A stretch of 64,000 nt of DNA from NCBI GenBank assembly GCA_964596735.1, contig CAZQVF010000005.1:13328-77327 (forward strand). The letters run 5' to 3'. Positions 66-59,118 of the stretch are shown here, piece by piece; the first letter of the stretch is position 1; each line of letters opens with the position of its first letter. The notes beneath the pieces are model-generated. The model did no database searches. It worked only from the letters and a program-made list of their open reading frames with translations, and was not told where the DNA came from. This DNA comes from an uncultured Gammaproteobacteria bacterium (GTDB taxonomy: Bacteria; Patescibacteriota; Patescibacteriia; UBA2591; UBA6264). The position numbers and the translations under genes are program-made.

Positions 66-145
66 TAAGAACCTTCTCGCTCTGCTCGCAGAACCTTGAA
101 ATTAAATTATTATTGTATAAAAATTAAGGTAATTTGATTATAAAA
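66..145 (+). promoter_or_regulatory. Dispersed promoter-proximal repeat, copy 1 (upstream of aspS)
   Basis: tAAGAACCttctcgctctgctcgCAGAACCTTGAAATTAAAttattattgTATAAAaattaaggtaatttgatTATAAAa. The same module recurs at 12463, 15164, 17266, 17333, 42867 and 59041. TTGAAA lies at 96-101 and TATAAA boxes at 116-121 and 139-144. Confidence 0.6.
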
Positions 146-148
146 CTT

Positions 149-1549
149 ATGAAACGAATTCAAAGCGAAGAAACAATTAATAAAATTAAAAAAGAAGTTA
201 AGCTTTGTGGTTGGGTAAACAGCCGTCGCAACATGGGTAAAATTGTTTTTATTGATTTAAGAGACCGTTCTGGCTTAGTCCAGATTGTTTTTATTCCCCA
301 AGAACTTGATCAAGAATCGCAAAAAGCAGTTAAAGAAACTCGACCTGAATTTGTTGTTGAGGTTAAAGGGGTTGTCCGTCTAAGACCGAAAAATCAAATT
401 AACAAAGATTTAATAAGCGGAAAAATAGAAATCTTAGCTAAAAAATTATCTATTTTAAATCAAGCTAAGACTACGCCATTTGAAATTGACAATGAAACCC
501 TTAAAGCCAACGAAGAACTTCGTCTAAAATACCGTTATTTAGACTTGCGGCATGAACGCATGAAAAATAATCTAATTCTTCGTCATCAAGTTATCAAATT
601 TATCCGTGATTATTTAGATAAAGAAAAATTTTTAGAAATTGAAACACCAATTCTAACTAAAGGCACACCAGAAGGTGCTAGAGAATTTATTATTCCTTCT
701 CGACTTTATCCTGGAAAATTCTATGTTCTCCCTCAAGCCCCTCAACAATTTAAACAACTTTTAATGGTTGCTGGTGTTGAAAAATATTTCCAAATTGCTC
801 GTTGTTTTCGTGATGAAGACACGCGGGGTGATCGTCAACCAGAATTTACTCAATTAGACATTGAAATGAGTTTTGTTGATCAGCATGAGATAATGGATTT
901 AATTGAAAAATTAACTATTGCCCTGATTAAAAAGATAGCTCCAAAAAAGAGAATTTTAACTAAACCCTTTCCCAGGATTACTTATGAACAGGCAATAAAA
1001 AAATATAAAACTGATAAGCCTGATCTAAGAAAGAATAAAAAAGATCCTAATGAACTAGCCTTTTGCTTTATCACAGACTTTCCTCTTTTTCAGTATTCAA
1101 AAACAGAAAAGAAAAATATCTCTGTACACCACCCTTTTACTGCCCCTCAAAAAAAAGATATCCCTATTTTAAGCAAAAAACCCCTAAAAGTATTAGCCCA
1201 GCAATATGATTTTGTTTGTAATGGTTTTGAGTTAGGAGGAGGTTCAATTAGAATTCACCAAAGAGAAATCCAGGAAGAAATTTTTAAAATTCTAAAAATT
1301 AATGAACAAGAAACAGAAAGGCGCTTTGGACACCTCCTTAAAGCTTTTGAATATGGAGCCCCTCCTCATGGCGGCATTGCTCTTGGCTTAGACAGAATAA
1401 TTATGATCCTTGCCAATGAGCCTAATATTCGCGAAGTTATCCCTTTTGCTAAAACAGCTGACGCCAAAGACTTAATGATGGGAGCACCAAGTGAAATTCC
1501 AGAAGAACAATTAAAACAAGCTCATATTGAAATCAAAAAGAAAAAATGA
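149..1549 (+). CDS. aspS: Aspartyl-tRNA synthetase (short form without the large bacterial insertion domain)
   Basis: Class II aaRS motifs FRDEDTRGDRQPEFTQLDIEMSF, GGGSIRIH and PPHGGIALGLDR, plus an N-terminal OB fold (CGWVNSRRNMGKIVFIDLRDRSG). ATG 149 is preferred over TTG 134 because 134 lies inside the upstream repeat. The TGA stop overlaps the ftsX ATG. Confidence 0.93.
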   Translation: MKRIQSEETINKIKKEVKLCGWVNSRRNMGKIVFIDLRDRSGLVQIVFIPQELDQESQKAVKETRPEFVVEVKGVVRLRPKNQINKDLISGKIEILAKKLSILNQAKTTPFEIDNETLKANEELRLKYRYLDLRHERMKNNLILRHQVIKFIRDYLDKEKFLEIETPILTKGTPEGAREFIIPSRLYPGKFYVLPQAPQQFKQLLMVAGVEKYFQIARCFRDEDTRGDRQPEFTQLDIEMSFVDQHEIMDLIEKLTIALIKKIAPKKRILTKPFPRITYEQAIKKYKTDKPDLRKNKKDPNELAFCFITDFPLFQYSKTEKKNISVHHPFTAPQKKDIPILSKKPLKVLAQQYDFVCNGFELGGGSIRIHQREIQEEIFKILKINEQETERRFGHLLKAFEYGAPPHGGIALGLDRIIMILANEPNIREVIPFAKTADAKDLMMGAPSEIPEEQLKQAHIEIKKKK

Positions 1550-2442
1550 GATTCTTTAGATTAGCTTTACAAAACTTTTTTAGAAATTTTTGGCTTTCTC
1601 TAACCAGTATTATTATCATACTCTTAATGCTGTTTTCCCTAAGCCTAGTTTATAGTTTTAACACCCTGGGCCAGCAAATATTAAGCTCTTTTAAAAATAA
1701 AATGGATTTGGGTGTGTATTTAAACCAAAACATTGATTTAAATCAATTAAGCCTTTTAAGGTCTGAGTTGGAGAATATGGATGAAATAAAAGAGGTATAT
1801 TATCTTACCCCTGAAGAATCTTTAGAAAATTTTAAAGAAAAACATGTAAATGATCCTTTAATTTTGAAATCATTAAAAGAACTGAATGAAAATCCCTTAG
1901 GAGGAGCTTTAACTTTAAAATTTTATGATCCTTCGGGTTATGAAAAAGTTATTTCAGTTATTAATCGTCCTGTTTATAGCGCTTTAATCCGAGATCAAAA
2001 TTTTTATGATTATCAAGAATTAATTCATGTTTTTAATCAATTTAATCAAAAAATTACAGGAGCAGGCTTAAGTATCAGTGGAATTTTTGCTTTAATTACT
2101 ATTTTGGTAATTTTCACCACTATTAAACTAGGGGCTCTTTCTCGTCGTCGAGAAATTAAAATTATGAGACTAGTTGGAGCTTCGGCCTGGTCTATTCGTA
2201 CTCCATTTTTAATTGAAGGTGGTCTATATGCATTTATTGCCTGGATCATAAACTCCGCTCTCATTATTCCTTTGGTCTATTTTTCTCAACCATATTTACA
2301 AAAATTTATTGAACTAGATTTTAATTTATTTATTTACCTGAAAACTGGCGCTTTTCATTTTTGGTTTGGCCTTTTACTCTTTGCTTTAATTGTTTCTCTA
2401 ATCGGTAGCAGTCTGGCAATTAAAAAATATTTAAAATTTTAA
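1546..2442 (+). CDS. ftsX: Cell-division permease-like protein FtsX
   Basis: Shows FtsX topology: one N-terminal TM, a large loop, then three C-terminal TMs. Carries the RRREIKIMRLVGAS motif region. Confidence 0.85.
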   Translation: MRFFRLALQNFFRNFWLSLTSIIIILLMLFSLSLVYSFNTLGQQILSSFKNKMDLGVYLNQNIDLNQLSLLRSELENMDEIKEVYYLTPEESLENFKEKHVNDPLILKSLKELNENPLGGALTLKFYDPSGYEKVISVINRPVYSALIRDQNFYDYQELIHVFNQFNQKITGAGLSISGIFALITILVIFTTIKLGALSRRREIKIMRLVGASAWSIRTPFLIEGGLYAFIAWIINSALIIPLVYFSQPYLQKFIELDFNLFIYLKTGAFHFWFGLLLFALIVSLIGSSLAIKKYLKF

Positions 2443-2457
2443 TACTCTTTCTTTTTC

Positions 2458-3468
2458 ATGAAGTTAAAAGAGTTTAATTATTCTCTTCCTCAAGAATTGA
2501 TTGCCCAGAAACCTATTCGACCTCGAGATCATTCAAGATTAATGGTTTTAAATAGAAAGAATCATACTATTATTCATGATTCTTTTTATAATCTAGATAA
2601 ATACTTAAAACCAAATGATGTTTTGGTTGCTAATAATTCAAAGGTTATACCCGCTCGCTTGTTTGGGCAGAAAACAACTGGGGGAAAAACAGAAATTCTC
2701 CTTTTAAGACCCCTAAAGAATAATCTATGGGAAATCGTTCTCAGGGGAAAGGGCCAACAAAATAAAGAAATTAAATTCAGCAAAAAGCTCTTTGGTATTT
2801 TAAAGCAACAAATCTCAGACCAGACATGGGAAATAGAGTTTAATTTAACCAATAATGCCCTACTCAAACAAATATATAAATTAGGTCACACTCCAACTCC
2901 CCCGTATATTAAACGTGCTTCCAGCTTACAAGAATATCAGACAACATATGCTCAGACTCCTGGTTCAGCGGCAGCGCCAACGGCTGGATTTCACTTTACA
3001 AAAAAATTAATTAAAAAATTAAAAAAACAAGGAAATGAATTTGAATTTATTACCCTCCATGTTGGTTTAGGAACTTTTCAGCCAGTAAGAACAGAAAACA
3101 TTGAAGAACATCAAATACATGCCGAGTGGGGAGAAATAACAAAGCAAACCGCAGAAAAATTAAATCAAGCAAAAGAAAACAAACAAAGAATTATTGCTAT
3201 TGGGACAACAACAACAAGAATTTTAGAGGCATTTACTCTTGAAAAAAAAGTAATTTCAGGAGAAAAATGGATCAATACCTTTATTTATCCTGGCTATGAG
3301 TTTAAATTCATCAACGGCTTAATTACTAATTTTCACCTCCCTCAATCAAGTCTTTTAATGTTGGTTTGTGCTTTTGCTGAAAAAAACTTTATTTTTCAAG
3401 CTTATGAGCAAGCCATAAAAGAAAAATACAGATTTTATTCTTTTGGTGATGCAATGTTAATTATCTAA
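2458..3468 (+). CDS. queA: S-adenosylmethionine:tRNA ribosyltransferase-isomerase
   Basis: N-terminus FNYSLPQELIAQKPIRPRDHSRLMVL, GTTTTRILE, and C-terminal FYSFGDAMLI are typical of QueA. Confidence 0.93.
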   Translation: MKLKEFNYSLPQELIAQKPIRPRDHSRLMVLNRKNHTIIHDSFYNLDKYLKPNDVLVANNSKVIPARLFGQKTTGGKTEILLLRPLKNNLWEIVLRGKGQQNKEIKFSKKLFGILKQQISDQTWEIEFNLTNNALLKQIYKLGHTPTPPYIKRASSLQEYQTTYAQTPGSAAAPTAGFHFTKKLIKKLKKQGNEFEFITLHVGLGTFQPVRTENIEEHQIHAEWGEITKQTAEKLNQAKENKQRIIAIGTTTTRILEAFTLEKKVISGEKWINTFIYPGYEFKFINGLITNFHLPQSSLLMLVCAFAEKNFIFQAYEQAIKEKYRFYSFGDAMLII

Positions 3469-3510
3469 AACTTGATTTTTTTAAAAATTCTCCTATAATA
3501 AACTTAATTT

Positions 3511-3582
3511 GGCCAGGTAGCCAAGTAGTAAGGCAGGTGTCTGCAAAACACCTATACACGGGTGCAATTCCCGTCCTGGCCT
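3511..3582 (+). tRNA. tRNA-Cys (GCA)
   Basis: Manual cloverleaf: acceptor ggccagg/cctggcc, anticodon stem ggtgt/acacc with loop ctGCAaa, T stem acggg/cccgt. The T-loop tgcaatt is slightly non-canonical. A T-run follows. Confidence 0.85.
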
Positions 3583-3619
3583 TTTTTGTTTTTCTTTTAA
3601 TCTCTGGTATAATAAAAAC

Positions 3620-4549
3620 ATGAAAAAAAATCCAAAACTTATTCTTATTGATGCCCAGGCCGTACTTCATCGCGCTTGGCACGCTTTACCTCAACTAACT
3701 GATTCTCAAGGCAGGACAACCAATGCTGTTTATGGTTTTACAGCTCTTTTATTAAAACTTATTAATGAACAAAAACCTGATTATCTGGCAATTGCTTTTG
3801 ATACTAAGGCTCCTACTTTTCGTCATGAAAAATATGAGGCGTACAAGGCAGGAAGAGAAAAACAACCTCAGAATTTTTATGATCAAATCGACTTTACCAA
3901 GGACATTATTAAACCATTTGATATTCCTGTTTTTGAAAAAGACGGTTTTGAGGCCGATGACCTAATTGGAGCAATTGTGAGAGCACAGAAAAAAAATATC
4001 CCCAATCTTGAATGTTTAATTGTTACTGGTGATTTGGATTTGTGTCAATTAATTGACACAAAAACCTCAGTTTATTTTCTTAGACATGGAATTTCCCAAA
4101 TAAAGATCTATGACCAAAAAGCTGTTAAGGAACGCTTTGATTTGTCGCCTCAACAATTAATTGATTTTAAAGCCTTGAGTGGGGATCCTTCAGATAATAT
4201 TAAGGGTGTTCCTGGTATTGGCCCAAAAACAGCTTTGAACTTAATTAAAAAATTCAAAAACATAGAGAAACTTTATCAACACCTGGAAGGATGTGTCAAA
4301 ACAAAGAAAAGGTGTTTAATTAAAGAATCATTAATGCACCTTCTTTTAAAAAACAAAAAACAAGTTTTTTTGGACAAAGAATTAGTAACTATTGTACAAA
4401 AAATTCCTGGATTAAATCTAAGAAAGCTAAAATGTTTAAAAGCTTTTGATCTAGAAAAAATTGCTCATATCTTCCAGGGATTTGGATTTAAAAGTTTAAT
4501 TAAAAGATTGGAAAAAAATGGTTTAGGCCAGCAAAATAAGCTTTTTTAA
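3620..4549 (+). CDS. 5'-3' exonuclease (stand-alone Pol I N-terminal/FEN-like domain)
   Basis: LILIDAQAVLHRAWHAL, acidic clusters FEADDLIG and TGDLDL, and H3TH motif SDNIKGVPGIGPKTA. No polymerase domain is present. Confidence 0.85.
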   Translation: MKKNPKLILIDAQAVLHRAWHALPQLTDSQGRTTNAVYGFTALLLKLINEQKPDYLAIAFDTKAPTFRHEKYEAYKAGREKQPQNFYDQIDFTKDIIKPFDIPVFEKDGFEADDLIGAIVRAQKKNIPNLECLIVTGDLDLCQLIDTKTSVYFLRHGISQIKIYDQKAVKERFDLSPQQLIDFKALSGDPSDNIKGVPGIGPKTALNLIKKFKNIEKLYQHLEGCVKTKKRCLIKESLMHLLLKNKKQVFLDKELVTIVQKIPGLNLRKLKCLKAFDLEKIAHIFQGFGFKSLIKRLEKNGLGQQNKLF

Positions 4550-4551
4550 TT

Positions 4552-5556: not shown

Positions 5557-5823
5557 TTATTTTGACAAACTGTTTATTTTTTTAACTAATCGCGACTTAC
5601 TCCGAGCCGCGGTATTTTTTTTCAAAACACCCTTTTGCACTGCTCGATCAAAAGATTTTTGTAATTTTGCATAAAGATCAACCGCCTCTTTCTTTTTCTT
5701 AGCGGCAATCGATTTTAAAAACTGTCGTTTTAACCAGCTAATATTTGCTTTGGTTTTTTTGTTACGTTCTGCACGTTTTTTTGACTGGCGAAGCGCCTTA
5801 ACTGCTGACTTTTTAATTGGCAT
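5557..5823 (-). CDS. rpsT: 30S ribosomal protein S20
   Basis: MPIKKSAVKALRQSKKRAERNKKTK... is a basic helical protein of S20 size. Confidence 0.92.
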   Translation of the reverse strand: MPIKKSAVKALRQSKKRAERNKKTKANISWLKRQFLKSIAAKKKKEAVDLYAKLQKSFDRAVQKGVLKKNTAARSKSRLVKKINSLSK

Positions 5824-5833
5824 GTTTAATAAT

Positions 5834-12430: not shown

Positions 12431-12462
12431 ATTAAAAAAATCTTATTAAATACTTAATACCC

Positions 12463-12530
12463 TATAATTAAATTACATTAATTTATATATAATAATTTAA
12501 TTTCAAGGTTCTGGTAAAGTCAGGTTCTTA
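12463..12530 (-). promoter_or_regulatory. Dispersed promoter-proximal repeat, copy 2 (upstream of rpmH)
   Basis: Minus-strand reading: AAGAACCtgactttacCAGAACCTTGAAATTAAAttattataTATAAAttaatgtaatttAATTATAg. It ends about 30 nt before the rpmH ATG. Confidence 0.6.
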
Positions 12531-12565
12531 TTTTAACACAAAAAGCACTAAACTACAAATACTAT

Positions 12566-15163: not shown

Positions 15164-15214
15164 TTTATAATTAAAATATTTTTTAATTTCAAGGTTCTGC
15201 GAAACAGGTTCTTA
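15164..15214 (-). promoter_or_regulatory. Dispersed promoter-proximal repeat, copy 3, short form (upstream of rbfA)
   Basis: Minus-strand reading: tAAGAACCtgtttcgCAGAACCTTGAAA-17 nt-TATAAA-a-ATG. The element begins on the tsaC stop codon. Confidence 0.6.
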
Positions 15215-17231: not shown

Positions 17232-17265
17232 ATATTCTTAGTTAATTGGTTATTTACTGTTAGTA

Positions 17266-17420
17266 TAAGAACCTGCTTCGCAGAACCTTGAAATTAAATT
17301 CTATTATATATAAATTAAGGTAATTTAATTATAAGAACCTGCTTCGCAGAACCTACCTGCCGGCAGGCAGGCCTTGAAATTAAATTCTATTGTATAAATA
17401 ATAATGTATTTTAATTATAA
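17266..17420 (+). promoter_or_regulatory. Tandem pair of the dispersed promoter-like repeat (copies 4a at 17266-17332 and 4b at 17333-17420)
   Basis: Two head-to-tail copies with TTGAAA at 17288-17293 and 17374-17379. Copy 4b carries a 20-nt insertion containing the perfect palindrome cctgccggcagg (17356-17367). Both point toward the 3' end of the minus-strand RT gene. Confidence 0.6.
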
Positions 17421-17464: not shown

Positions 17465-18442
17465 TTATTCTACTAAACCTACTTTCTTTCTAAATTTATA
17501 CGTATTTCCGTGAATCAATAGTCCTTGATAAGAAATAACTGTCTGTCGTTTTGGATAATTCTTTAATCTTCTAATTATCTTTCGCTTTGTGGTTGTTCGA
17601 ATCTGTCGATAGCATGGAAAATGTATCCAGCCCAAAAAATCTAAACCCGAAGCATAAGTTCTAATACAAACCTTGTGTTGATGAAGTGTCAATTTAAGTT
17701 CTTTTTGTAAAAATTCAGTGATTCTTAACAATAAACCATTGAGATACTCTTTATTGTCCGATAAAATAACGAAATCGTCGCCATATCTAATATAATATTT
17801 CACTCGCAATTCCTGTTTTATATACATATCAAATTCGTGCATATAAACATTAACGAAAAGTTGGGAAGTGAGGTTGCCAAGGGGCAGACCTATCCCCAAA
17901 CGGCTGGAATAAAAACTAAAAACTACCCTTTCAATCAACCGAATAATTTGAGAATCGTTAATGTGTCTCTTTAATATTTTAATAAGGATTTGCTGATCAA
18001 TGTTAGCAAAAAATTTCTGAATATCGCATTTTAGAATATAACAAGTTTGAGAATTATTTTTTGATACCTTCTGGGCAAAATATCTGAATCTGTTCAAAGC
18101 GCGATGCACTCCCTTGTTTTCTCTACACGAATATACATCATAAATAAACTTTCTATCAAAATAAGGACACAGCTCCTTATAAATGAGATGATGTAATAAC
18201 CGATCACGCACCGTAGCTTTGTGAATATTTCTCGGCTTGGGGTCAGAAATATTAAAAGCCGAATATGGTCCGTGAATATAAGTAAAATTAACCAGAGACT
18301 TATAAAGATCTATTAAATTATCGGCCAGCTTTATTTGAAAAATCATCACATCTTTTTTATGTCTTTTACCACACAAAAAACGCTCCCAAGTCGCTAAGAG
18401 ATTTTCTATCTTAATAATATCAATATATTTAACTTTAAACAT
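17465..18442 (-). CDS. DGR-type reverse transcriptase
   Basis: RT motifs: PRNIHKATVRDRLLHH, ILKCDIQKFFANID, IGLPLGNLTSQLFVNVYM (DGR-typical LGxxxSQ), IRYGDDFVIL (YxDD) and LDFLGW. Start taken at MFKVKYIDI (18442). The ORF could extend to 18511. Confidence 0.9.
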   Translation of the reverse strand: MFKVKYIDIIKIENLLATWERFLCGKRHKKDVMIFQIKLADNLIDLYKSLVNFTYIHGPYSAFNISDPKPRNIHKATVRDRLLHHLIYKELCPYFDRKFIYDVYSCRENKGVHRALNRFRYFAQKVSKNNSQTCYILKCDIQKFFANIDQQILIKILKRHINDSQIIRLIERVVFSFYSSRLGIGLPLGNLTSQLFVNVYMHEFDMYIKQELRVKYYIRYGDDFVILSDNKEYLNGLLLRITEFLQKELKLTLHQHKVCIRTYASGLDFLGWIHFPCYRQIRTTTKRKIIRRLKNYPKRQTVISYQGLLIHGNTYKFRKKVGLVE

Positions 18443-18820
18443 ATGACTACAATATCTGCGCGAGTACCATTGGTGCTTGTTAGAACAAAAAGGGCTTATC
18501 AAATTTGGCACAAAAATTTAGTCAATCTTAATCGACTTGATCGCTATACTATTGGTGCTAAAATCGATGAATATTTTCTATCTTTATTGGAATTAATTTT
18601 TAAGGCCTGTTTTGCTTACGATAAATTTGAAAAACTCTCAATGGTATCACAAGCGATTGGTAAAAACGATTTATTAAAATTCTTTTTACAGATTGGTTGG
18701 GAACAAAAAACCATTAACCATAAAAATTATGGTCTTCTAATACTTTTACTTGATGAAGTTGGTCGAATGCTGGGTGGCTGGAAAAAAAATATACAAGAAA
18801 AAACTCCCGCTAGTAAGTAG
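18443..18820 (+). CDS. avd: Avd-like four-helix-bundle accessory protein, on the strand opposite to RT/TR/VR
   Basis: 125-aa helical protein: RAYQIWHKNLVNLNRLDRYTIGAKIDEYFLSLLELIF...LLKFFLQIGWEQK...LLDEVGRMLGGWKK. It resembles the four-helix-bundle family that includes DGR Avd. Its ATG abuts the RT start (cat|atg at 18440-18445). Confidence 0.75.
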   Translation: MTTISARVPLVLVRTKRAYQIWHKNLVNLNRLDRYTIGAKIDEYFLSLLELIFKACFAYDKFEKLSMVSQAIGKNDLLKFFLQIGWEQKTINHKNYGLLILLLDEVGRMLGGWKKNIQEKTPASK

Positions 18821-18840
18821 CAGGAGAAAAAATTAAATAA

Positions 18841-18960
18841 GTCACAGAAGCAGAGCAGGCAGTCGTTATCATCCCAAGCGTTCTCAAAGTTGCCGAGGTT
18901 GAAATTAAAGTCATCATCCGAGTTGCGGTTGACATTCGGCACGCGGTAGTTGCCGTCAGA
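18841..18960 (-). repeat. DGR template repeat (TR)
   Basis: 120 bp homologous to 19299-19418. Minus-sense reading is rich in AAY codons: SDGNYRVPNVNRNSDDDFNFNLGNFENAWDDNDCLLCFCD. Contains 28 adenines in the minus sense. Confidence 0.9.
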
Positions 18961-19200
18961 CAATGTACAGCCCGCCACCTTTTTCACTAAGGGTAACGCC
19001 AGTCGCCCTCTGTATTTTATTCTGAGCCAAAATGCTCAATAGCACGCTGCACCGACTGATTTAATTTTTTCATAAAAGGTTGCACTCATTTACTAAGCAT
19101 GCCCAGTAAATTCCTGGCAAACTCCCTTTACGAGAATTCGATGATATAAAGCCATGGCCACATATCCAATCTATTATCCAAAAATATTATACAGAAAAAA

Positions 19201-19238
19201 TACATAAAAGAAAAGGGTCCTTACATTGGTAAGAACCC
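19201..19238 (-). terminator. Rho-independent terminator of the DGR target gene
   Basis: Minus-strand reading: gggttcttac-caat-gtaaggaccc followed by ttttctttt. It lies between VR and TR. Confidence 0.6.
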
Positions 19239-19289
19239 AAAGGGTCAAAAAATCCAAAGAACAGGACTAAGAAACCAAGTGCCTAAGCA

Positions 19290-19949
19290 CTAATCGCAGT
19301 CGCAGAAGCAGAGCAGGCAGTCGCTATCATCCCAAGCGTCCTCAAAGGGGCCGAGGAAGAAAATAAAGTCACCAACCGAGTAGCGGTCGACAGACGGCAC
19401 GCGGTAGCTGCCGTCAGAATCGATCCAGAGAGCCTCTTTCTCATCAAACGAGACAGACCAACGGCTCTTTGGCAACTTGTTTTTGGCAAGTTCATAGACC
19501 AGTGAAGCGCCTTGAGCGCCGGCTAAAACAGCTTTCTGAGAATACAGGAAATTTAAACAGTCTTCCGAAGTCACAGTTTCTGTGATATTAAAAACCTTTA
19601 CCTTGAACTTTCTGCCAGGCACGAGCTTTGTTGTCGCTTTGTTAAAGTGCTTATCAGTGATGTCGGAATTGTAGTAATTAAATTCCGAGCCATGCGCTGC
19701 TGCAAAGTCAGTCAAGCGCGTAGCATGGTCGTAACCCTTAGGCACAACAATGTTAAACGCATTGGCCAATTTGAAGCGCGGGTCAGGCATAAACGGTGAA
19801 AGAGCTTGCTGACGTTGTTTCTGTGTCAGATTTAAAAAACATTCATATTCTGGCAAACTCATTTGCCCTTTCTTGATCTTCTGATTGCAATCCATATGCA
19901 GACCAGCCAATTTGGCCGCTTCTGCGCCGATAGATGTCTTATCCATCAT
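19290..19949 (-). CDS. DGR variable (target) protein, unknown family, C-terminal VR
   Basis: ORF ends ...WIDSDGSYRVPSVDRYSVGDFIFFLGPFEDAWDDSDCLLCFCDCD*, with the VR covering the last 40 full codons before CD*. Start at ATG 19949 is preceded by AAGGAG; the ORF track start at 19997 is the alternative. No N-terminal hydrophobic signal is seen. Confidence 0.85.
   Translation of the reverse strand: MMDKTSIGAEAAKLAGLHMDCNQKIKKGQMSLPEYECFLNLTQKQRQQALSPFMPDPRFKLANAFNIVVPKGYDHATRLTDFAAAHGSEFNYYNSDITDKHFNKATTKLVPGRKFKVKVFNITETVTSEDCLNFLYSQKAVLAGAQGASLVYELAKNKLPKSRWSVSFDEKEALWIDSDGSYRVPSVDRYSVGDFIFFLGPFEDAWDDSDCLLCFCDCD
19299..19418 (-). repeat. DGR variable repeat (VR)
   Basis: Base-by-base alignment to the TR gives 15 mismatches. 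14 fall at TR adenines (minus sense) and 1 is a T>C in the invariant GC-rich 3' end. Confidence 0.9.
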
Positions 19950-20015
19950 TTTCTCCTTTGATACCAAGAGTTTAATAATTGACCCCATGCCAATCATTTT
20001 CTCAGTATTGATAAT

Positions 20016-27949: not shown

Positions 27950-29317
27950 TTATTGATTATATAACCTTTGTTTAATTAAATCTATTTCCTGTTTTGTGCG
28001 GCTATTTTGCTCAATCCCATCTTTTATCTTTTCATAAGCATGCATAGCTGTTGTGTGATCACGATTCCCTAATTCTTTACCAATTAAAGGAAAGGAGGCT
28101 CCGACTTCTTCCCTCATCAAATACATGGCTACCTGTCTAGGAACAACAAGTTCTCTTTTTCGAGAGAGACCAATCATTTCACTAACGTGAATACCATAAA
28201 AATTAGCTACTGTTTCAATTAATTCTTTTGCTTGAATTAATCCTTTTTTTCTTCGCGTGTCTAAACTAGCTAGAACATTTTTTACTACAGATAAATCAAG
28301 TTCTGTTCTATGAAACTCATAATAAGCAATTAATTTGTTAAGGGCTCCTTCCAGCTCTCTAACGTTGCTTTGGATATGAGTAGCCAAATATTGAATAATC
28401 TCCTCATTTAAATTACATTTTCTTTCTTGACACTTTGCCTTTAAAATAGCTAACCTTGTTTCTAAATCAGGCGGAGTAATATCAGCAATTAATCCCCATT
28501 CTAATCGTGAGATTAAACGATCTTCAAGGGCAGGAATATCTTTGGGGGTGCGATCAGAGGTGAGGACTATTTGTTGCCCATCTTGATGAAGGCTGTTAAA
28601 GGTATGAAAAAATTCTTCCTGAGTCCGTTCTTTACCGGCCATAAATTGAATATCATCAACCAAAAGGACATCTACCCCCCTATAGATTTCTTTAAATTTA
28701 TCAATCGTTCCATTTCCAATCGCCCGAATAAACTCATTAGTAAACCTTTCTGCATTAGTACAAAGAACTTTTATCTTAGAGTTCTTCTCTAAAATAGCAT
28801 GGCCAATTGCTTGTAATAAATGGGTTTTTCCTAGTCCAACTCCTCCATAAATAAAAAGCGGGTTGTATTTTTTACCCGGCTGTTTAACTATAGCCTGACA
28901 AGCGGCGTAAGCCAATTCTGAACCCTTGCCGACAACAAAATTTTTAAAAGTATAACGAACATTTAATCCATGGCCATTAGTTTCTGGAACCTTCTCTGGG
29001 ACCAGCTTATCTATATCAATAGTTTCAGGTCCAGGCTCCTTAGCTGATTTTACGGCCTCAACCTTATAAATTACTTTTTTAACCTTGTTGTCTGTAGCTC
29101 CCTGTAGGGCCTCAAGAATAGATCGATGATATTTCTTTTCTAACCAATTTTTAGAAAAATTATTTGGCACACCAACAATAACAGTTTCCCCATTATCCTG
29201 GAGTTGAGAAATATAAGTATTTTGAAACCAAGTCTTAAAATTAGCTTTAGAAAGCGATAACTCTAGCTCTGACAAAACAATATTCCAAATTTCTTGTTTA
29301 TCCACTTCTTCAACCAT
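27950..29317 (-). CDS. dnaA: Chromosomal replication initiator DnaA
   Basis: NPLFIYGGVGLGKTHLLQAIG, LLVDDIQF, and C-terminal DNA-binding region HTTAMHAYEKI. Confidence 0.96.
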   Translation of the reverse strand: MVEEVDKQEIWNIVLSELELSLSKANFKTWFQNTYISQLQDNGETVIVGVPNNFSKNWLEKKYHRSILEALQGATDNKVKKVIYKVEAVKSAKEPGPETIDIDKLVPEKVPETNGHGLNVRYTFKNFVVGKGSELAYAACQAIVKQPGKKYNPLFIYGGVGLGKTHLLQAIGHAILEKNSKIKVLCTNAERFTNEFIRAIGNGTIDKFKEIYRGVDVLLVDDIQFMAGKERTQEEFFHTFNSLHQDGQQIVLTSDRTPKDIPALEDRLISRLEWGLIADITPPDLETRLAILKAKCQERKCNLNEEIIQYLATHIQSNVRELEGALNKLIAYYEFHRTELDLSVVKNVLASLDTRRKKGLIQAKELIETVANFYGIHVSEMIGLSRKRELVVPRQVAMYLMREEVGASFPLIGKELGNRDHTTAMHAYEKIKDGIEQNSRTKQEIDLIKQRLYNQ

Positions 29318-29503
29318 AACAAACTGTTTAAATAAATTACTTAATAATTTAGTAGATATATAATAACATTTATTAACAAAAAGACAAATTAATCAAAGTT
29401 AACAACATGGGGACAATCTGTGGACAACCTAAATCCTTGCCTTCTTGGACAAAAACTGTTATTTTAATAACAATAACTAATTATAATAAGATTTAAGATT
29501 AAT
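29318..29503. other. Candidate oriC / dnaA promoter region
   Basis: AT-rich stretch at 29320-29400 followed by three GGACAA-type DnaA-box-like 9-mers: tGGGGACAA 29408-16, TGTGGACAA 29419-27 and TTGGACAA 29445-52. TTATCCACt at 29298-306 lies just inside dnaA. Confidence 0.45.
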
Positions 29504-36960: not shown

Positions 36961-36990
36961 TAATGTTCGAGGTTCTCAGGTTTGCCTCGG
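36961..36990 (-). promoter_or_regulatory. Degenerate copy of the dispersed repeat core upstream of rseP
   Basis: Minus-strand reading: aaacctgAGAACCTcGAAcATTAAAg versus consensus cAGAACCTTGAAATTAAA (2 mismatches in the core). Confidence 0.4.
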
Positions 36991-42866: not shown

Positions 42867-42919
42867 TTTATAATTAAAATGTTTTTTAATTTCAAGGTTC
42901 TGGCGAAGCCAGGTTCTTA
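42867..42919 (-). promoter_or_regulatory. Dispersed promoter-proximal repeat, copy 5, short form (upstream of the AI-2E transporter gene)
   Basis: Minus-strand reading: tAAGAACCtggcttcgcCAGAACCTTGAAA-17 nt-TATAAA-ct-ATG. Confidence 0.6.
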
Positions 42920-42944
42920 TTTTTTAAATTTATAATTATCTATA

Positions 42945-46720: not shown

Positions 46721-46759
46721 TTATTTATAAGCAAAGCTTGAAATTAAAAAACATTTTAA

Positions 46760-47479
46760 CTATAAATGCCAGCTGAAAAACAGCTTAATCACTTTCTCGG
46801 CTATTTGTAAATCCTTTTGGACAAATTTTTGTTGAATTAAAGAAGCAAAATCTTGGTAAAGCAATTTTCGTAAAACCATTAAAGCTTTTATATTAATTCT
46901 GACTTGTTGATTGTTAGCGTTGTCATCTAAATTATGTTTTAAGCAAACAATTCCCCCTTTTTCTAAATTAAAAACAATCTCTTCTTCTTGGGGTGTTTGA
47001 TAACAAATTAGACAGGTTTTTATCTCTGGACAATATCCTGAGAAAGCGAGGAATTTGATTAAAAAAGCATGATTAATAATCCTAATTTTATTTAAAGGAA
47101 TTTGATTAATTATTTTTAAAAATTTTAATATCAGAAGGAAAATTTTTTTATCAGACTGGGGTTTAATTAATTGATTAATTCGTTTTAGTAAAGTATTGGT
47201 TTGAATAATCTTTTGTTCTTCTGTAATAATATTCTTAAAACGTTCCTTAACCTCACCGCCAATTAAATGAGTATGACTTTTCCCTGGAGCAACAACTAAA
47301 TCTAATAAAGCAAAAGGCTCCGAAATAAGTGGAGCCAGCTTAGAATTGATTTTACGAGCCCCGCGAACAAAGACTTCTAATTTGCCAGATTCTTGACTAT
47401 AAAAAGATATAACTTGATCATTCTCCCGCCAATTCTCTCTGGCCAAAATTATTCCCAGTAAATGTTGGGTTCTAGACAT
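46760..47479 (-). CDS. recO: DNA repair protein RecO
   Basis: N-terminal OB fold, a CxxC...C zinc module (CLICYQ...VCLKH), and appropriate size. Confidence 0.75.
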   Translation of the reverse strand: MSRTQHLLGIILARENWRENDQVISFYSQESGKLEVFVRGARKINSKLAPLISEPFALLDLVVAPGKSHTHLIGGEVKERFKNIITEEQKIIQTNTLLKRINQLIKPQSDKKIFLLILKFLKIINQIPLNKIRIINHAFLIKFLAFSGYCPEIKTCLICYQTPQEEEIVFNLEKGGIVCLKHNLDDNANNQQVRINIKALMVLRKLLYQDFASLIQQKFVQKDLQIAEKVIKLFFSWHL

Positions 47480-47481
47480 AA

Positions 47482-54043: not shown

Positions 54044-54100
54044 AATATTATAATATTATACCTTTTTGCTTTATTCGTAAAGTGCTATAATGGGGATATT

Positions 54101-55064: not shown

Positions 55065-55083
55065 AAATATAATTTTAAATTAA

Positions 55084-56823
55084 TTAATGTTGTCCAGGGG
55101 GTAAAATTTTAACCCCCTGCTTTTTATTTTGTGAATATTTAGTGTGGCAAACTAAATGAATCTTTTCCTTTTCGTTTAAAAATTCTTTATAAACTTTTTG
55201 AACAACCGGATTTTGGTGTGCTGATCTAATATTTTTTCTTTGATCAACCTTGTACAAACCCTTAGCCCGACTCGCTCTGATTTCTGAATCAACCGGGACC
55301 GGCTGACCTCCTCCACCAACACAGCCTCCAGGACAGGCCATTACCTCAATATAATCATAAGCAGGAGAATCACTTTTTAGCTCTTTTAAAATCCTTTTGG
55401 CTTGACCAATACCATTAATTACAGCTATTTTAAGGATATGATTCTTAATCTTAATCTTGGCTCTTTTAACTCCATCCATTCCTCGAACCTGTTCAAATTC
55501 TAATCTTTTTAAAGGCTTATTTGTTATTTTTTCTACTACTGTTCTCAGGGCAGATTCCATTACCCCACCTGTTGCCCCGTAGATAACACCAGCTCCTGAA
55601 GGAAAGCCCAAGGGTGTATCCAGCTTTTGAGGAACAAGTTTTTTTAAATCAATCTTTCTCTTTTTTAAGAGACTGGCTAATTCCCTGGTTGTTAAAACAT
55701 AATCTACCGGCAACAAACCATTAATTTTCAGCTCTTTTCTAGCAATTTCGTGTTTTTTGGCTACACAAGGCATAATAGAGACAACAATAATTTTCTTTGG
55801 GTCGATGCCTTGTTTTTTAGCCCAAAAAGTTTTTATTAAACCTCCCAAAATTATATGTGGCGAGCGAACAGTGGTCAGATTTGGAATAAATTCAGGGAAA
55901 TAAAATTCAACAAATTTTACCCAAGCAGGGCAACAAGATGTAAACATGGGCAACCTTCCTTTTCCTTTTAACCTTTTAGTAAATTCCTCTGCTTCTTCGA
56001 CTGTAGTAAAATCCGCTCCTACGCTTACATCAAAAACTTTTTCTACACCAAGTTTTTTTATCCCAGCCGCCAACTTTTCAGTAATAAGCGTGCCTAAAGA
56101 AATATCAAACTCCTCGCCAATACTTGTTCTAATTGAAGGAGCAAATTGAACAACAACTAATTTATCTTTTTGTTGAAAAGGTTTTTCAATTTCTTCAAAT
56201 TCTCCAACCCCTTCAAAAGCTCCAGCCGGACAATGAACAATACACTGTCCACAATAAATACAATCCTTATTTTTATCTTTAGTAGGTAATATTTTTGTAT
56301 GTACTCCCCTGTTTTTCATTTCTAAAAAACCGACTCCTTGTTTTTCACACATTTCAACACAATTATAACAATCGATGCACTTGGAAGAATCAAAAATAAG
56401 AGAATTCCCAAATCGATAAACTAGAAAATCTTTTTTCCTGTCAATAAATCGATTAGTCTTGAGTCGCTGTTTCTTTGCTAGTTTTAAAAGCTGACAACGG
56501 GCCTCCCAAACACAGTCATTACATTCTTCAAAATGTTGAGCAAAAATTAATTCTAAATTGATTCTTCTTGCTCTCCTAATTCTTGGTGTGTCAGTCATAA
56601 TTTCCATGCCTGGCTTAACTTTAGTGGAACAAGATGTTTGTAAGTCTTTAATGCCTTTTATTTTAACAATACAAATACAACAATTAGACTTTATCTCTAA
56701 ATCTGAATGATAACAAAATGCTGGAATTTCAATCCCATGTTTTTTAGCCACTTGAAAAACTGTCTGCCCCTCAAAAGCCTGGACTTTCTTTCCGTTAATG
56801 GTTATTTGAAATCTTTTATTCAT
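55084..56823 (-). CDS. hydA: [FeFe]-hydrogenase catalytic subunit (HydA-like)
   Basis: N-terminal 2Fe-2S ferredoxin fold and 4Fe-4S CxxCxxC clusters. H-cluster motifs are TSCCPAWV, MPCVAKKHE and EVMACPGGCVGGGGQP. Confidence 0.9.
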   Translation of the reverse strand: MNKRFQITINGKKVQAFEGQTVFQVAKKHGIEIPAFCYHSDLEIKSNCCICIVKIKGIKDLQTSCSTKVKPGMEIMTDTPRIRRARRINLELIFAQHFEECNDCVWEARCQLLKLAKKQRLKTNRFIDRKKDFLVYRFGNSLIFDSSKCIDCYNCVEMCEKQGVGFLEMKNRGVHTKILPTKDKNKDCIYCGQCIVHCPAGAFEGVGEFEEIEKPFQQKDKLVVVQFAPSIRTSIGEEFDISLGTLITEKLAAGIKKLGVEKVFDVSVGADFTTVEEAEEFTKRLKGKGRLPMFTSCCPAWVKFVEFYFPEFIPNLTTVRSPHIILGGLIKTFWAKKQGIDPKKIIVVSIMPCVAKKHEIARKELKINGLLPVDYVLTTRELASLLKKRKIDLKKLVPQKLDTPLGFPSGAGVIYGATGGVMESALRTVVEKITNKPLKRLEFEQVRGMDGVKRAKIKIKNHILKIAVINGIGQAKRILKELKSDSPAYDYIEVMACPGGCVGGGGQPVPVDSEIRASRAKGLYKVDQRKNIRSAHQNPVVQKVYKEFLNEKEKIHLVCHTKYSQNKKQGVKILPPGQH

Positions 56824-57809
56824 TTAGGTTGAATAACCTTTTTAATTAAAGTTGTAAAGGGCAAAGCCACATTTTTCCCAAAAGGACAAAAGCTGGTTTG
56901 ATCTAAGACAAATAATAAATCCCTAAGTGTTCTCTTGTCAATTTGTCTTTGATTTAAAATTTGCCTAACACGGTAAACCCCTTCTCTGCAAGGAACACAT
57001 TTTCCACAATTCTCTTTAAAAAAGAAATCAATCCATTTTTTCATTAAAAAATTTGGATTAGTTTTTCTAAGATTATAAACAAAAATTGTCCCGACTCCGC
57101 CTACTTTTTGGTTTAACTCCTTTAAGAGTAAAATGCGACCACTAGCTCCTCCTCCTGCCTGAACAAAAAAATCAAAGTTAGGCCAATTGTCTGTTTTTTT
57201 TAAAATCTGTTTCACGCTCAATCTTTCTGATAACTCATAAACATCTGGATTCTTTACCTTATTTAAAGAATAAAAGCGCGTTTTCTTGTACTTATTTTGG
57301 ATAATTTGCGCTATATAATAAAAAGTTTCTACATTGTTGACTAAAGTAGGATAACCCCAAAGTCCTTTTTCAGGCGGATATGGCGGGCGAGCCTGAGGGA
57401 TAGGATCTTTTCCTTCTAATGTTTGAATTAAAGTAGTTTCTTCTCCGCAAAGATACCCGGCTTGTTTTTTAAAAATCTTTATGGATAAATTATTAACTTT
57501 AATAATTTTTTCTAATGATGCTTTAAATTTTTGATAATAATCTTTACGAAGATAAATATAAGCTGAACTATGATCAATGGTTTTTAAAGCAATTTCGATT
57601 CCTTTGATTAATTCCTCTGGATAATTATGAAGAATAAAACCATCTTTAAATGTCCCTGGTTCTCCTTCAGATCCGTTACAAATAATATATTTCTTCTTCG
57701 CTGAAACCCTTTTAACCATTCCCCACTTTAAGCCAGTAGGAAATTCTGCTCCACCTCGTCCGGTTAAGCCAGAATCTTTTATTTTTTCAATTACATTTTG
57801 AGGACTCAT
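56820..57809 (-). CDS. NuoF/HydB-like NAD(P)H-binding flavoprotein subunit (short)
   Basis: GLTGRGGAEFPTGLKW, GEPGTFKD, and a C-terminal cluster CGKCVPCREG. Confidence 0.82.
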   Translation of the reverse strand: MSPQNVIEKIKDSGLTGRGGAEFPTGLKWGMVKRVSAKKKYIICNGSEGEPGTFKDGFILHNYPEELIKGIEIALKTIDHSSAYIYLRKDYYQKFKASLEKIIKVNNLSIKIFKKQAGYLCGEETTLIQTLEGKDPIPQARPPYPPEKGLWGYPTLVNNVETFYYIAQIIQNKYKKTRFYSLNKVKNPDVYELSERLSVKQILKKTDNWPNFDFFVQAGGGASGRILLLKELNQKVGGVGTIFVYNLRKTNPNFLMKKWIDFFFKENCGKCVPCREGVYRVRQILNQRQIDKRTLRDLLFVLDQTSFCPFGKNVALPFTTLIKKVIQPK

Positions 57810-57837
57810 AGATTAGTTGAAAGTTAAGTGGTCGTCA

Positions 57838-57863
57838 TCGGGGTGCCCGGAATCGAACCCGGG
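57838..57863 (-). pseudogene. Orphan tRNA-Pro-type 3' fragment (T-arm plus acceptor 3' strand)
   Basis: Minus-strand reading: cccgggTTCGATTccggg-caccccg-a. It starts immediately after the TGA stop of the endonuclease-like ORF. No 5' half is adjacent. Confidence 0.6.
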
Positions 57864-58727
57864 TCAAATATTTTCGATTTCTAATTCTAAAATTTCTGAA
57901 AGACGATTCACAGGAAATAAATCCTTAGGATATATTTCTATTAATTTAAGATTGCATTTTTTACAAATATTTTGTTTTTCCCTAACTAATTCGTCATATC
58001 TTTTTATTGCTCCAATTAGTCCAAAAAATTCTATAATAGTATCTTTAACGACAAAATCGGCTGTTAAAGACTTGTTTTGAGGATAAGGAACATTTCTTTT
58101 GTGCTTAATATTCTTACTAAGAAGCCAATCATCTATTATTTTTTCAGAAAAAGAATCGCATTTATGACCATCTTTGGCAATAAATTTTTTAGCAAACAAA
58201 ACTGGGTTAGGTTCAAACCCAGCGGATTTAACAGCCTTATTCCATGTCCCGAATCTTAGTCTCGCTGCATCATAATGATGATATTCTCTTTTAACAGGAA
58301 TTCTTTTTTCGCGCTTATAAAATGCTTTTATTTCATTGGTAATCTGCTTACTACTTACTACTATTTTAGAATTTATTAAATTGTAACAAGATTTTGAACA
58401 ACATTTTCGTTCACCAAAAAACTCTTTACCACAATTAATACATGTCTTACTTTTTCTCCTTTTTTGATTACTTACAATAGCAGCACAAGATTGGGAACAA
58501 AAAACCATGCCCGTTCTCGATTTTCTAATTTCAGAAGGCGGACGAATTACTATTCTGTTGCATACAGGATTTGCACAAATTCTTCTGACACTCCTGATTC
58601 GATCTTTCTTTAAACACTTTTGAGAGCAATACTGTTTCCAACCAAATTTTTTAGCTTCATTTACTCGCCCCACTGTTCTAAAAAATTTTTGACCACAAAA
58701 GGCACAATTAATTTTAACTAAATTCAT
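57864..58727 (-). CDS. Homing-endonuclease-like protein: three zinc ribbons, HEAR-type repeat, PD-(D/E)xK-like nuclease domain
   Basis: Three CxxC...CSxxC modules. RFGTWNKAVKSAGFEP resembles the homing-endonuclease-associated repeat. The C-terminus is CDSFSEKIIDDWL...ADFVVKDTIIEFFG. Confidence 0.6.
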   Translation of the reverse strand: MNLVKINCAFCGQKFFRTVGRVNEAKKFGWKQYCSQKCLKKDRIRSVRRICANPVCNRIVIRPPSEIRKSRTGMVFCSQSCAAIVSNQKRRKSKTCINCGKEFFGERKCCSKSCYNLINSKIVVSSKQITNEIKAFYKREKRIPVKREYHHYDAARLRFGTWNKAVKSAGFEPNPVLFAKKFIAKDGHKCDSFSEKIIDDWLLSKNIKHKRNVPYPQNKSLTADFVVKDTIIEFFGLIGAIKRYDELVREKQNICKKCNLKLIEIYPKDLFPVNRLSEILELEIENI

Positions 58728-58741
58728 AAAAATATTTAATA

Positions 58742-58815
58742 TCGGGCTGGCCGGCTCCGCCCCGGCGACCTCATCTCCCCCAGAGATGCGCGCTAACTAA
58801 CTGCGCCACAGCCCG
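58742..58815 (-). tRNA. tRNA-Pro (GGG) with non-canonical T-loop
   Basis: Manual cloverleaf, 74 nt: acceptor cgggctg/cagcccg, D stem gcgc/gcgc, anticodon stem catct/agatg with loop ctGGGgg, T stem gccgg/ccggc. The T-loop ggcggag lacks the TTC/A58 pattern. Confidence 0.65.
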
Positions 58816-58826
58816 ACATTCAAAAT

Positions 58827-59006
58827 CTAAACTCCAAAATTCTTTTTCAAAGATTTTAAACACTTGGTACAAATCTTTATCCTCTTGCCAGATATCTTTT
58901 TTGTCTGTAAATTTAAATATTGTCGCCTTTTTGTGGCGATATTTGAATGGGACCTGGTAAAGCTTGTTTGTGGACCACGTCCACAAATTGAACAACGTCT
59001 TGCCAT
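58827..59006 (-). CDS. rpmB: 50S ribosomal protein L28
   Basis: MARRCSICGRGPQTSFTRSHSNIATKRRQYLNLQ. Start moved to ATG 59006. Confidence 0.9.
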   Translation of the reverse strand: MARRCSICGRGPQTSFTRSHSNIATKRRQYLNLQTKKISGKRIKICTKCLKSLKKNFGV

Positions 59007-59040
59007 AATCGTATCTTTTAAATATTTTAATTTAGTATAT

Positions 59041-59118
59041 AAGAACCTGCTCACTTCGTTCGCAGAACCTTGAAATTAAATATTTATTGTATAAAATATT
59101 AATGTACTTCAATTATAA
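59041..59118 (+). promoter_or_regulatory. Dispersed promoter-proximal repeat, copy 6 (upstream of the M50 protease gene)
   Basis: AAGAACCtgctcacttcgttcgCAGAACCTTGAAATTAAAtatttattgTATAAAatattaatgtacttcAATTATAA. Confidence 0.6.

Follow-up and report, generated by a model that had tools for sequence, protein, structure and literature searches.

A family of two-hairpin intergenic repeats with a promoter-like core in Parcubacteria-type genomes

We analyzed a stretch of 64,000 nucleotides, hereafter the window, from contig CAZQVF010000005.1 (positions 13,328 to 77,327; assembly GCA_964596735.1, deposited as an uncultured Gammaproteobacteria bacterium and placed by GTDB in the Patescibacteriota). 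The subject is a short repeat in its intergenic regions, which an earlier sequence-only reading had described as a dispersed promoter-like family in front of operons. Neighboring genes were identified by Pfam and encode a class II aspartyl-tRNA synthetase (AspRS), L34 together with the RNase P protein, RbfA, an AI-2E transporter and an M50 peptidase, in agreement with the genes named in that reading. The upstream neighbors include RNase Y, Sua5/TsaC and an M16 peptidase. The 18-nt core of the repeat, CAGAACCTTGAAATTAAA, has six exact matches in the window (Table 1), while 0.41±0.57 were expected by chance from 100 dinucleotide shuffles of the window, none of which reached six. In a seventh copy the core is interrupted by a GC-rich palindrome. 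All seven copies contain the pair AGAACC-N(8-16)-AGAACC, and such a pair was found nowhere else in the window. Using nhmmer with a profile built from the whole family, exactly the same seven copies were recovered at E<=5e-8 and nothing more of significance. The family is therefore real, and the copy positions given by the sequence-only reading were correct to within ~2 nt. It had, however, omitted a variant copy between tgt and recO, which brings the total to eight copies in 64 kb. Conversely, what it had listed as a degenerate core upstream of rseP is at best a relic, since the match to the core is 15/18, hairpin 1 and the left and right boxes are absent, and the family profile misses it at E<=10.

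The sequence-only reading had proposed a search for the 18-mer in other genomes, and this revealed that the element is widespread in genomes of the candidate phyla radiation (CPR). A scan of species-representative genomes (genome_contigs) returned at least 103 stretches with exact CAGAACCTTGAAATTAAA. About 70 of these belong to AT-rich metagenome-assembled genomes (MAGs) labelled Patescibacteria, Parcubacteria, Minisyncoccales or 'Saccharibacteria'. Further carriers are TPA (third-party annotation) MAGs labelled 'Gammaproteobacteria', yet their genes are similar to those of the window. Hits outside the CPR (Chryseobacterium, Bacillus, Clostridium and others) lie inside coding DNA without the flanking boxes and were set aside as chance matches. 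A phage promoter was rejected as well, as the 18-mer occurs in viral contigs in two chance matches only, both inside coding sequence. Among the matches listed, the same architecture was found in more than 60 loci from ~25 Patescibacteria/Parcubacteria MAGs, and at least 15 loci within one MAG were counted among the first 80 matches listed. These loci are 8-kb stretches around copies, ~0.7 Mb in all, and are referred to here by L-numbers. The nearest carrier is the sister species KR13_N2.mb.83 (locus L061) with ~90-94% DNA identity; other carriers share 46-68% protein identity with the window (ClpB, L21, EF-G, S7 and the M50 gene). Even in the latter, core and right box are letter-perfect. Many copies are located at contig ends, as is typical of high-copy repeats at which assemblies break. 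No Rfam 15 family was detected on any copy, either in a gathering-score scan of the whole window or in a scan of 17.2-20.2 kb at E<=10, which gave a single chance-level hit (E=4), and no description of this element was found in the literature searched. We conclude that the family is a clade-wide feature of Parcubacteria-type (CPR) genomes.

The anatomy of the repeat was derived from 86 distinct full units from 67 sources. A unit is a non-coding, intergenic segment of 50-95 bp made of two adjacent hairpin modules. In the CPR loci its architecture reads TATA/AGAACC - H1 - C/AGAACCTTGAAATTAAA - H2 - TTTAATTAT/AA, where H1 and H2 are variable segments; in simplified form the core is given as CAGAACCTTGAAATTAAA between H1 and H2. 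H1 is 7-22 nt long and sometimes longer, up to 45 nt; the length of H2 clusters at 6 nt (short form) or 24-26 nt (long form, ~80% of the family). Folding revealed that the two AGAACC "direct repeats" are both sides of one imperfect helix, giving an AAC/AAC internal loop. Hairpin 1 thus consists of an outer stem TAAG/CTTG, this symmetric internal loop, an inner stem CTGC/GCAG and a TTC triloop. The CTG...CAG inverted pair seen by the sequence-only reading is a genuine hairpin, and the remaining variable segment is likewise enclosed by a hairpin stem, AATTAAA...TTTAATT. This hairpin 2 is all A-T with a tip of 6 nt or ~25 nt, and the unit terminates in ATTATAA. Each base of the core falls into place: CAG belongs to the inner stem, AAC to the internal loop, CTTG to the outer stem and AATTAAA to the stem of hairpin 2, and the TTGAAA that resembles a -35 box straddles the junction of the two hairpins. 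The sequence-only reading had taken the conservation to exceed the need of a promoter; it had not seen that the core is wholly accounted for by the two-hairpin fold. The loop of hairpin 1 is mostly TTC, so that the other strand carries GAA within a GCGAAGC mini-hairpin motif. GCGAAGC is a very stable DNA mini-hairpin known at single-strand initiation sites (PMC13037366). Some loci (L023, L032, L039, L047) have extra hairpin-1-type units ahead of one hairpin 2.

In both hairpins the pairing is conserved, not the sequence. The inner stem of hairpin 1 varies in length and sequence (CTGC/GCAG, CTGGC/GCCAG, CTGCC/GGCAG, CTGAC/GTCAG, CTGCCC/GGGCAG), and in the 16-nt H1 form CTGC-TC-GC-TTC-GC-TC-GCAG the upper stem shows exchanges between G:C and A:T. 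The stem of hairpin 2 is lengthened by one or two covarying pairs (U-A 39, C-G 10, A-U 9, G-C 1), and TTGAA/TTCAA double changes occurred in three lineages (L033, L071, L094). Our own pair counts revealed alternation of CG, GC, AU and UA at several positions, while slid controls pair at ~10%. Covariation was tested on an alignment (A1) that was padded until paired positions share columns, using 500 shuffles. Pairs changed on both sides numbered 14 compared to 8.1±1.2 in the shuffles, none of which reached 14 (0/500), and double-change cells numbered 78 compared to 26±5. The covariation score was 0.087, and dropped to 0.012-0.039 when the 3' partners were slid by 1-3 columns. Hence, both variable segments are hairpins supported by covariation.

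Comparison with relatives revealed that copies come and go. The copy in front of rbfA is precisely absent from L061 (window ...TTTTTAA/GAACC...TTTAATTATAA/AAATG; L061 ...TTTTTAA-AG-ATG). Due to an A-run at the site, this one clean empty/filled pair can be written with 0-3 nt duplicated, and a target duplication is not required. The rpmH copy is also absent at the orthologous site of L061, where a TGTTATAAT-type promoter is found instead; from this comparison, rpmH has apparently been left without a TGTTATAAT promoter of its own at the site of the element. At 17.3 kb, L061 has one full unit and the right third only of another, the first of the pair. At 42.9 kb, two units in L019 stand against one in the window, and the shared short unit is identical except for a hairpin 1 variant, which points to conversion among copies. 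In the clpB-rplU gap the window has a plain TTGACA-17-TATATT promoter, whereas in L032 and L039 an antisense copy of the element with additional modules of the hairpin-1 type is found there. Head-to-tail arrays of 2-4 units without spacer (...AATTAT/AAGAACC...) are common, and nested copies and differences in array size between relatives were seen. Units are gained, lost and homogenised quickly, and they multiply as spacerless head-to-tail arrays and dispersed copies. They lack terminal inverted repeats: the left end matches the reverse complement of the right end at a mean of 5.4/16 positions (maximum 8). The left flank of non-tandem copies has the consensus AWWAT, matching the 3' end ATTAT of the unit itself. 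This anatomy suggests that insertion might take place just 3' of an ATTAT-like sequence, with no need for a target duplication. No gene bounded by split unit ends was found in the 8-kb stretches around copies.

Other tiny palindromes sit nested inside units. At ~3870-3950 of L091, hairpin 2 of a unit is interrupted at TTAA by a ~77-nt element whose inverted termini are CCCCACACCTTTTG...CAAAAGGTGTGGGG, a classical MITE (miniature inverted-repeat transposable element) inside the repeat. The 17-nt GC-rich palindrome ACCTGCCGGCAGGCAGG with duplicated CCT lies inside one unit of the window, and a similar sequence, ACCTGCCTGCGCAGGCAGG, is found outside units in L048 (~647, minus strand). Other GC-rich hairpins are nested in hairpin 1 in L079, L091, L035/L052, L031/L051/L083/L005 and L065. 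Together, these GC-rich palindromes might represent a second class of insertions, palindromic and very small. An excision footprint (direct repeat plus palindromic filler) was rejected since the filler is not complementary to the flank. In two genomes a 5' fragment of tRNA-Leu, GCCGMRGTGGCGGAAYWGGCRGA, directly follows the right end of a unit (L046, past the unit at oriented 3831; L083, 2908-2930), and in L083 a complete tRNA-Leu begins ~40 nt beyond the fragment.

The promoter likeness of the repeat was scored as matches to the sigma-70 consensus out of 12 hexamer positions. TTGAAA, a 5/6 match to TTGACA, is invariant in 85/86 units. In short units TATAAA, TATAAG or TATAGA follows 17 bp past TTGAAA, and TTGAAA-17-TATAAA scores 10/12. 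Long units have an nAnnnT hexamer at 16-18 bp from TTGAAA, and the clustering of H2 length means that a spacing of 16-18 bp is kept. The geometry described by the sequence-only reading was indeed seen in the window, where short copies (H2 = 6 nt) have TTGAAA-17-TATAAA and long copies (H2 23-26 nt) carry ~20 nt extra. Upstream of aspS the top sigma-70-like site is the TTGAAA-17-AAAAAT of the copy, 24 nt from the ATG, and in the 333-nt divergent gap before the M50 gene it is the TTGAAA-16-TAAAAT of the copy (10/12). Ordinary promoters of the window, before other genes and the transfer-messenger RNA (tmRNA), are canonical TTGACA-17-TATAAT with 17-40-nt leaders, and the RNA polymerase of this genome should therefore read TTGAAA-17-TATAAA. 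Orientation was counted over 72 arrays, 48 of which face a downstream gene start (48:24, p=0.006). The statement that copies point toward the adjacent gene start holds for 5/6 canonical loci of the window; family-wide it applies to about two thirds only, the remaining third or so being directed away from any gene start. Divergent gaps with the element outnumber convergent ones 13:3. In 20/47 sense cases the distance from the right end of the unit to an ATG is -2 to +7 nt, and in eight of these the ATG overlaps as AATTATG; tsf in L063 is another gene with its ATG close to the right end. Promoter activity of sense copies is inferred from these features: from a copy that landed in sense, an outward-facing sigma-70 promoter could drive the next gene. 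Both unit ends read TTATAAT on the other strand, and their reverse complement could donate a -10 box on the opposite strand. The 17.3-kb pair offers a candidate for this arrangement, conserved in L061, in which a hybrid promoter TTGACG-16-TATAAT uses a flanking -35 box. From it, the glutaredoxin operon would receive a ~180-nt leader that comprises both modules in antisense.

Several other explanations of the conserved boxes were discarded. A simple scan flagged hairpin 1, read on the reverse strand with the TTCTTAT after it, as an intrinsic terminator, but its stem is only 4-5 bp and the U-tract is poor. TAAGGT was rejected as a Shine-Dalgarno sequence: AAGG is present in some copies only, TAATGT or TAAAGT stands in many others, and a Shine-Dalgarno sequence is missing from most genes here. 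For leaderless transcription with TTTAAT or TAAGGT as -10 boxes, the spacings do not fit throughout. Readings of GAACC as a promoter of an extracytoplasmic function (ECF) sigma factor or of the N4-type hairpin class (PMC13037366) failed because a fixed -10 partner and a single-subunit polymerase are both missing. Finally, the tandem pair does not drive an rRNA or other RNA gene, since the 3' end of a reverse transcriptase gene lies downstream. Most start codons of the window have A/T-rich sequence upstream and no Shine-Dalgarno motif, and the intergenic gaps are often 0-20 nt. In L072 (3443-3530) a three-unit array is followed by a ~55-nt A-rich stretch and a strong hairpin-plus-T-run terminator (CAGCGA...TCGCTGTTTTTT) without an open reading frame; this stretch could be an array-driven small RNA or the terminator of convergent tRNA genes.

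Taken together, the sequence comparisons favor a reading to which we give a probability of about 55%: the repeat would be a duplicative, MITE-like family of structured intergenic units that consist of two hairpins and act as a sigma-70-type promoter when they lie in sense. Some traits of classical MITEs are present, as the units are small, non-coding, present in many copies and variable in presence or absence between relatives (rbfA, rpmH, clpB-rplU); terminal inverted repeats are missing. Sigma-70 promoters are also found in Correia elements and other MITEs, which lie directly in front of genes (PMC10969869). In its behavior, the element is best described as the equivalent in Parcubacteria of the Correia, BOX and ERIC-type repeats, more so than as a fixed regulatory site. 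Correia elements (CREE/NEMIS, Neisseria) are likewise small non-coding repeats, which number about a hundred or more per genome and mostly lie directly before genes, with sigma-70-like promoter elements, polymorphism between close relatives and transcript hairpins that RNase III can cut (PMC10969869). However, they have no sequence similarity to the present element, their terminal inverted repeats measure 26 bp, they duplicate a TA target and they occur in one genus only, whereas here we find a directional two-hairpin unit that forms head-to-tail arrays, lacks inverted termini and resides in hosts at ~60% EF-G (elongation factor G) identity. Pneumococcal BOX (boxA-(boxB)n-boxC), together with RUP and SPRITE, shares the modular structure with a variable number of internal modules (here the extra hairpin-1-type units), the intergenic location, predicted stem-loops, mutual insertion and the lack of a known transposase (PMC10969869). 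BOX has unrelated sequences and hosts and larger modules of 45-59 nt, and it is not known to carry a -35/-10 pair conserved at a constant distance. ERIC/IRU of enterobacteria and vibrios is also intergenic, found in divergent genera, strain-variable in copy number, present in both orientations and associated with RNA-level effects (PMC10969869), but it is a 127-bp imperfect palindrome, whereas the present element has two different side-by-side hairpins and about half the size. REP/BIME with RAYT and the elements derived from IS200/IS605 resemble it in that recognition apparently involves small imperfect hairpins flanked by conserved single-stranded bases, inverted termini are missing, a target duplication is not required, and insertion occurs beside a short specific sequence. 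In contrast to them, it has dissimilar hairpins, no GTAG-type head and no REP-like preference for gene 3' ends; its copies in the window show no bias for a replication strand, and a Y1 enzyme was not found in the loci searched. Matus-Garcia et al. reportedly described 'putative mobile promoters' in NAR in 2012, that is, homologous promoter-bearing segments upstream of unrelated genes. The promoter-carrying intergenic repeats of halovirus HF2 (PMC8707807) are similar in placing homologous promoter-bearing segments before unrelated genes. Both are defined by promoter homology alone, while here a structured two-hairpin unit occurs that is also found antisense and in arrays.

A number of observations weigh against the MITE-like reading. 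Concerning mobility, a clean empty site was found only once, at rbfA, and this copy is present in all nine contigs of the window's own species, without polymorphism. No transposase or recombinase partner was identified; tblastn with two approximate TnpA queries gave nothing below E=2 in the ~0.7 Mb of loci. A selfish repeat would not usually keep a letter-perfect core at 46-68% protein identity, which suggests that a conserved host factor constrains it. Concerning the structure, the hairpins are short and weak (DNA fold -4 to -8.5 kcal/mol, z-scores -0.2 to -5.3), and palindrome-correcting mutation could mimic some of the covariation. Concerning the promoter, the strongest -10-like hexamer of long units is at 14-bp spacing, and the candidates at 16-18 bp match only at A2 and T6, which is weak in 80% A+T DNA. 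The -10 boxes of the rbfA and AI-2E copies are only 1-2 nt from the annotated ATG, so that the promoter cannot serve those start codons. Moreover, the hairpin model explains every core base, and the promoter resemblance could therefore be incidental. The orientation bias is small between co-directional genes, where 24 sense stand against 17 antisense cases (p=0.35). Of the interpretations in the sequence-only reading, the mobile promoter cassette came closest to the evidence: its duplicative or mobile nature is well supported (empty site, arrays, array-size differences, nesting, assembly breaks), while the promoter part is only partly supported: short copies fit with TTGAAA-17-TATAAA, but the -10 box of the long copies (~80%) is ambiguous and the orientation bias is modest. 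A bolder form of this idea, which we consider unlikely, is a mobile promoter cassette without inverted termini and target duplication that would insert by ATTAT-like, -10-box-like sites via an undescribed hairpin-recognising mechanism, its core being kept almost unchanged across the Parcubacteria by RNA polymerase or by a structure-specific protein that reads the AAC/AAC hairpin upstream of the -35 box.

The hairpins may alternatively belong to a cis-acting RNA element that functions in read-through mRNAs or 5' leaders in either orientation, with an incidental promoter likeness. By analogy with REP, ERIC and Correia and their processing by RNase III and RNase E, such an element might be a determinant of processing and stability or provide a translation-initiation context. 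We regard this as improbable. In its favor, covariation backs both helices, the hairpin tips are, as in functional RNAs, of variable length with GC-rich extensions nested in them, and copies in both orientations fill whole intercistronic gaps. The antisense pair at 17.3 kb would be part of a leader behind a promoter conserved in L061, RNase III and RNase Y are encoded in the window, and the right end of units abuts ATG codons, for example that of tsf in L063. As RNA, the reverse strand folds better in 71/86 units (-11.6 compared to -8.9 kcal/mol). This advantage was, however, traced to one or two invariant features, and counts of G-T (G-U) and A-C do not single out a folded strand. In addition, hairpin 2 has only 7-9 A-U pairs, the folding energies are small and mostly not significant, and no Rfam family matches. 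A cis-regulatory RNA should stay with particular genes, yet the copies come and go between sister species and adjoin unrelated genes.

A purely selfish single-stranded DNA element is, in our view, quite unlikely. It would consist of IS200/IS605- or REP/RAYT-like ends reduced to two subterminal hairpins, would be moved by a Y1/HUH enzyme encoded elsewhere and would have no host function. The missing terminal inverted repeats, an empty site that requires no target duplication, the identity of the left flank AWWAT with the 3' terminus ATTAT in combination with spacerless head-to-tail arrays, and the conservation of pairing over sequence all fit such an element, as does the GAA triloop on one strand, which equals the GCGAAGC mini-hairpin of single-strand initiation sites (PMC13037366). 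In the window the orientations are +,-,-,+ left and -,+,+ right of dnaA/oriC, a small sample that nevertheless contrasts with the strong lagging-strand bias of IS200/IS605. IS200/IS605 ends carry similar hairpins, whereas the two hairpins of the present unit are unlike, hairpin 1 being GC-rich with its AAC/AAC loop and hairpin 2 all A-T. Furthermore, the core is identical across genomes at only ~60% EF-G identity, and the enrichment in divergent over convergent gaps speaks against this reading too. The lack of a Y1 transposase in the ~0.7 Mb of loci is a weak test, as the query sequences were approximate.

Very little remains for a transcription-factor site or UP-like element that co-regulates housekeeping operons, as the sequence-only reading had also offered: conservation reaches upstream of the -35 box, AGAACC is directly repeated, the core is strongly conserved across divergent genomes and several neighbors belong to the translation apparatus (aspS, rpmH, rbfA; tsf in L063), but the spacing of AGAACC ranges from 14 to >50 nt without helical periodicity, the segment between the repeats covaries as a hairpin, the region consists of AGAACC and a GC-rich hairpin at variable distance and not of an A/T-rich tract at the fixed -40 to -60 of an UP element, copies are absent at the same genes in a sister species and stand at different genes elsewhere, about one third point away from gene starts, and tandem arrays are common.

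The individual copies of the window are compiled in Table 1. The AI-2E copy has TTGAAA-17-TATAAA with the -10 box 2 nt from the annotated ATG, and its DNA fold reaches a z-score of -5.3. In the second unit of the 17.3-kb pair, CAGAACC and CCTTGAAATTAAA are kept apart by TACCTGCCGGCAGGCAGG, and the core of this copy (17333-17420) is split as the sequence-only reading had described. The variant copy reads TATAA-GCAAAGC (mini-hairpin)-TTGAAATTAAA-AAACAT-TTTAACTATAA, and its AGCAAAGCTTGAAATTAAA form recurs in L048, L052 and L011.

Table 1. Copies of the repeat and related features in the 64-kb window, with exact 18-mer matches and profile coordinates.
Feature	Positions	Strand	18-mer	Profile	Basis
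Long copy upstream of the class II AspRS gene (149-1549); left AGAACC 68-73, H1 74-89, core 90-106, H2 107-132, right box TTTGATTAT 133-141	66..143	+	89+	65-143	18-mer, profile
Long copy between rny (RNase Y) and rpmH-rnpA; H1 = tgactttac	12462..12531	-	12496-	12462-12531	18-mer, profile
Short copy occupying the entire Sua5/TsaC-rbfA gap; TTGAAA-17-TATAAA, -10 1 nt from rbfA ATG	15164..15214	-	15182-	15167-15214	
Long copy, first of head-to-tail pair, antisense to flanking glutaredoxin and diversity-generating retroelement reverse-transcriptase genes	17265..17334	+	17281+	17265-17334	
Long copy, second of pair; palindrome ACCTGCCGGCAGGCAGG (~17354-17373, CCT duplicated) between hairpin 1 and TTGAAATTAAA	17331..17420	+		17331-17420	
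Candidate hybrid promoter TTGACG-16-TATAAT (11/12); -10 = reverse complement of module right end AATTATAA	17414..17441	-			
Possible decayed relic GAGAACCTCGAACATTAAAG, 15/18 of core, upstream of rseP	36961..36990	-			sequence match
Short copy upstream of AI-2E transporter gene; H1 = tggcttcgc	42867..42920	-	42885-	42874-42920	
Short variant lacking the AGAACC repeats, in antisense in the tgt-recO gap	46726..46766	+			weak profile match
Long copy in divergent gap tRNA-Pro / M50 peptidase gene; right box TTCAATTAT	59039..59118	+	59063+	59039-59117	18-mer, profile

Beyond the 17.3-kb pair lies a diversity-generating retroelement (17465-19997, minus strand) with an RVT_1 reverse transcriptase gene (17465-18442, minus strand) and a bAvd-like gene (18443-18820, plus strand), whose ATG overlaps the start of the reverse transcriptase gene as CATATG. 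The template repeat (~18827-18997) has its variable counterpart (~19285-19454) at the 3' end of a gene for a 235-aa protein without Pfam match. The two repeats share 130 matches, and template adenines account for 20 of the 40 mismatches. In the sister species (L061) the DNA of this region is different. Next to the unit at 59 kb, a 287-aa protein with HNH_repeat, which is homing-endonuclease-associated, is encoded at 57864-58727 (minus strand); the gene adjoins tRNA-Pro just upstream of the divergent gap. The dnaA gene (27950-29317, minus strand) is followed by a 186-nt gap with TTGTCCACA-type DnaA boxes (~29.4 kb) and then by rpmF (region 27950-29503), and this gap is probably the replication origin. 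The GC skew of the window tracks gene orientation and shows no switch at the dnaA gap.

Promoters of CPR bacteria are essentially uncharacterised. The repeat fronts about a quarter of the transcription units in the window and gives a handle on promoters and operon boundaries, and it might serve as a source of expression parts for uncultivated CPR bacteria. At the same time it is an assembly nuisance, with many copies at contig ends, and affects gene calling, as start codons often abut its right end. If mobility is true, the family would add a small class of repeats without inverted termini or target duplication, and if the mobile-cassette reading is true, a sizeable share of the transcription units in these reduced genomes would have been rewired by it. 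The core outlasts protein divergence down to ~60% EF-G identity, which raises the question of which conserved factor reads the AAC/AAC-loop hairpin.

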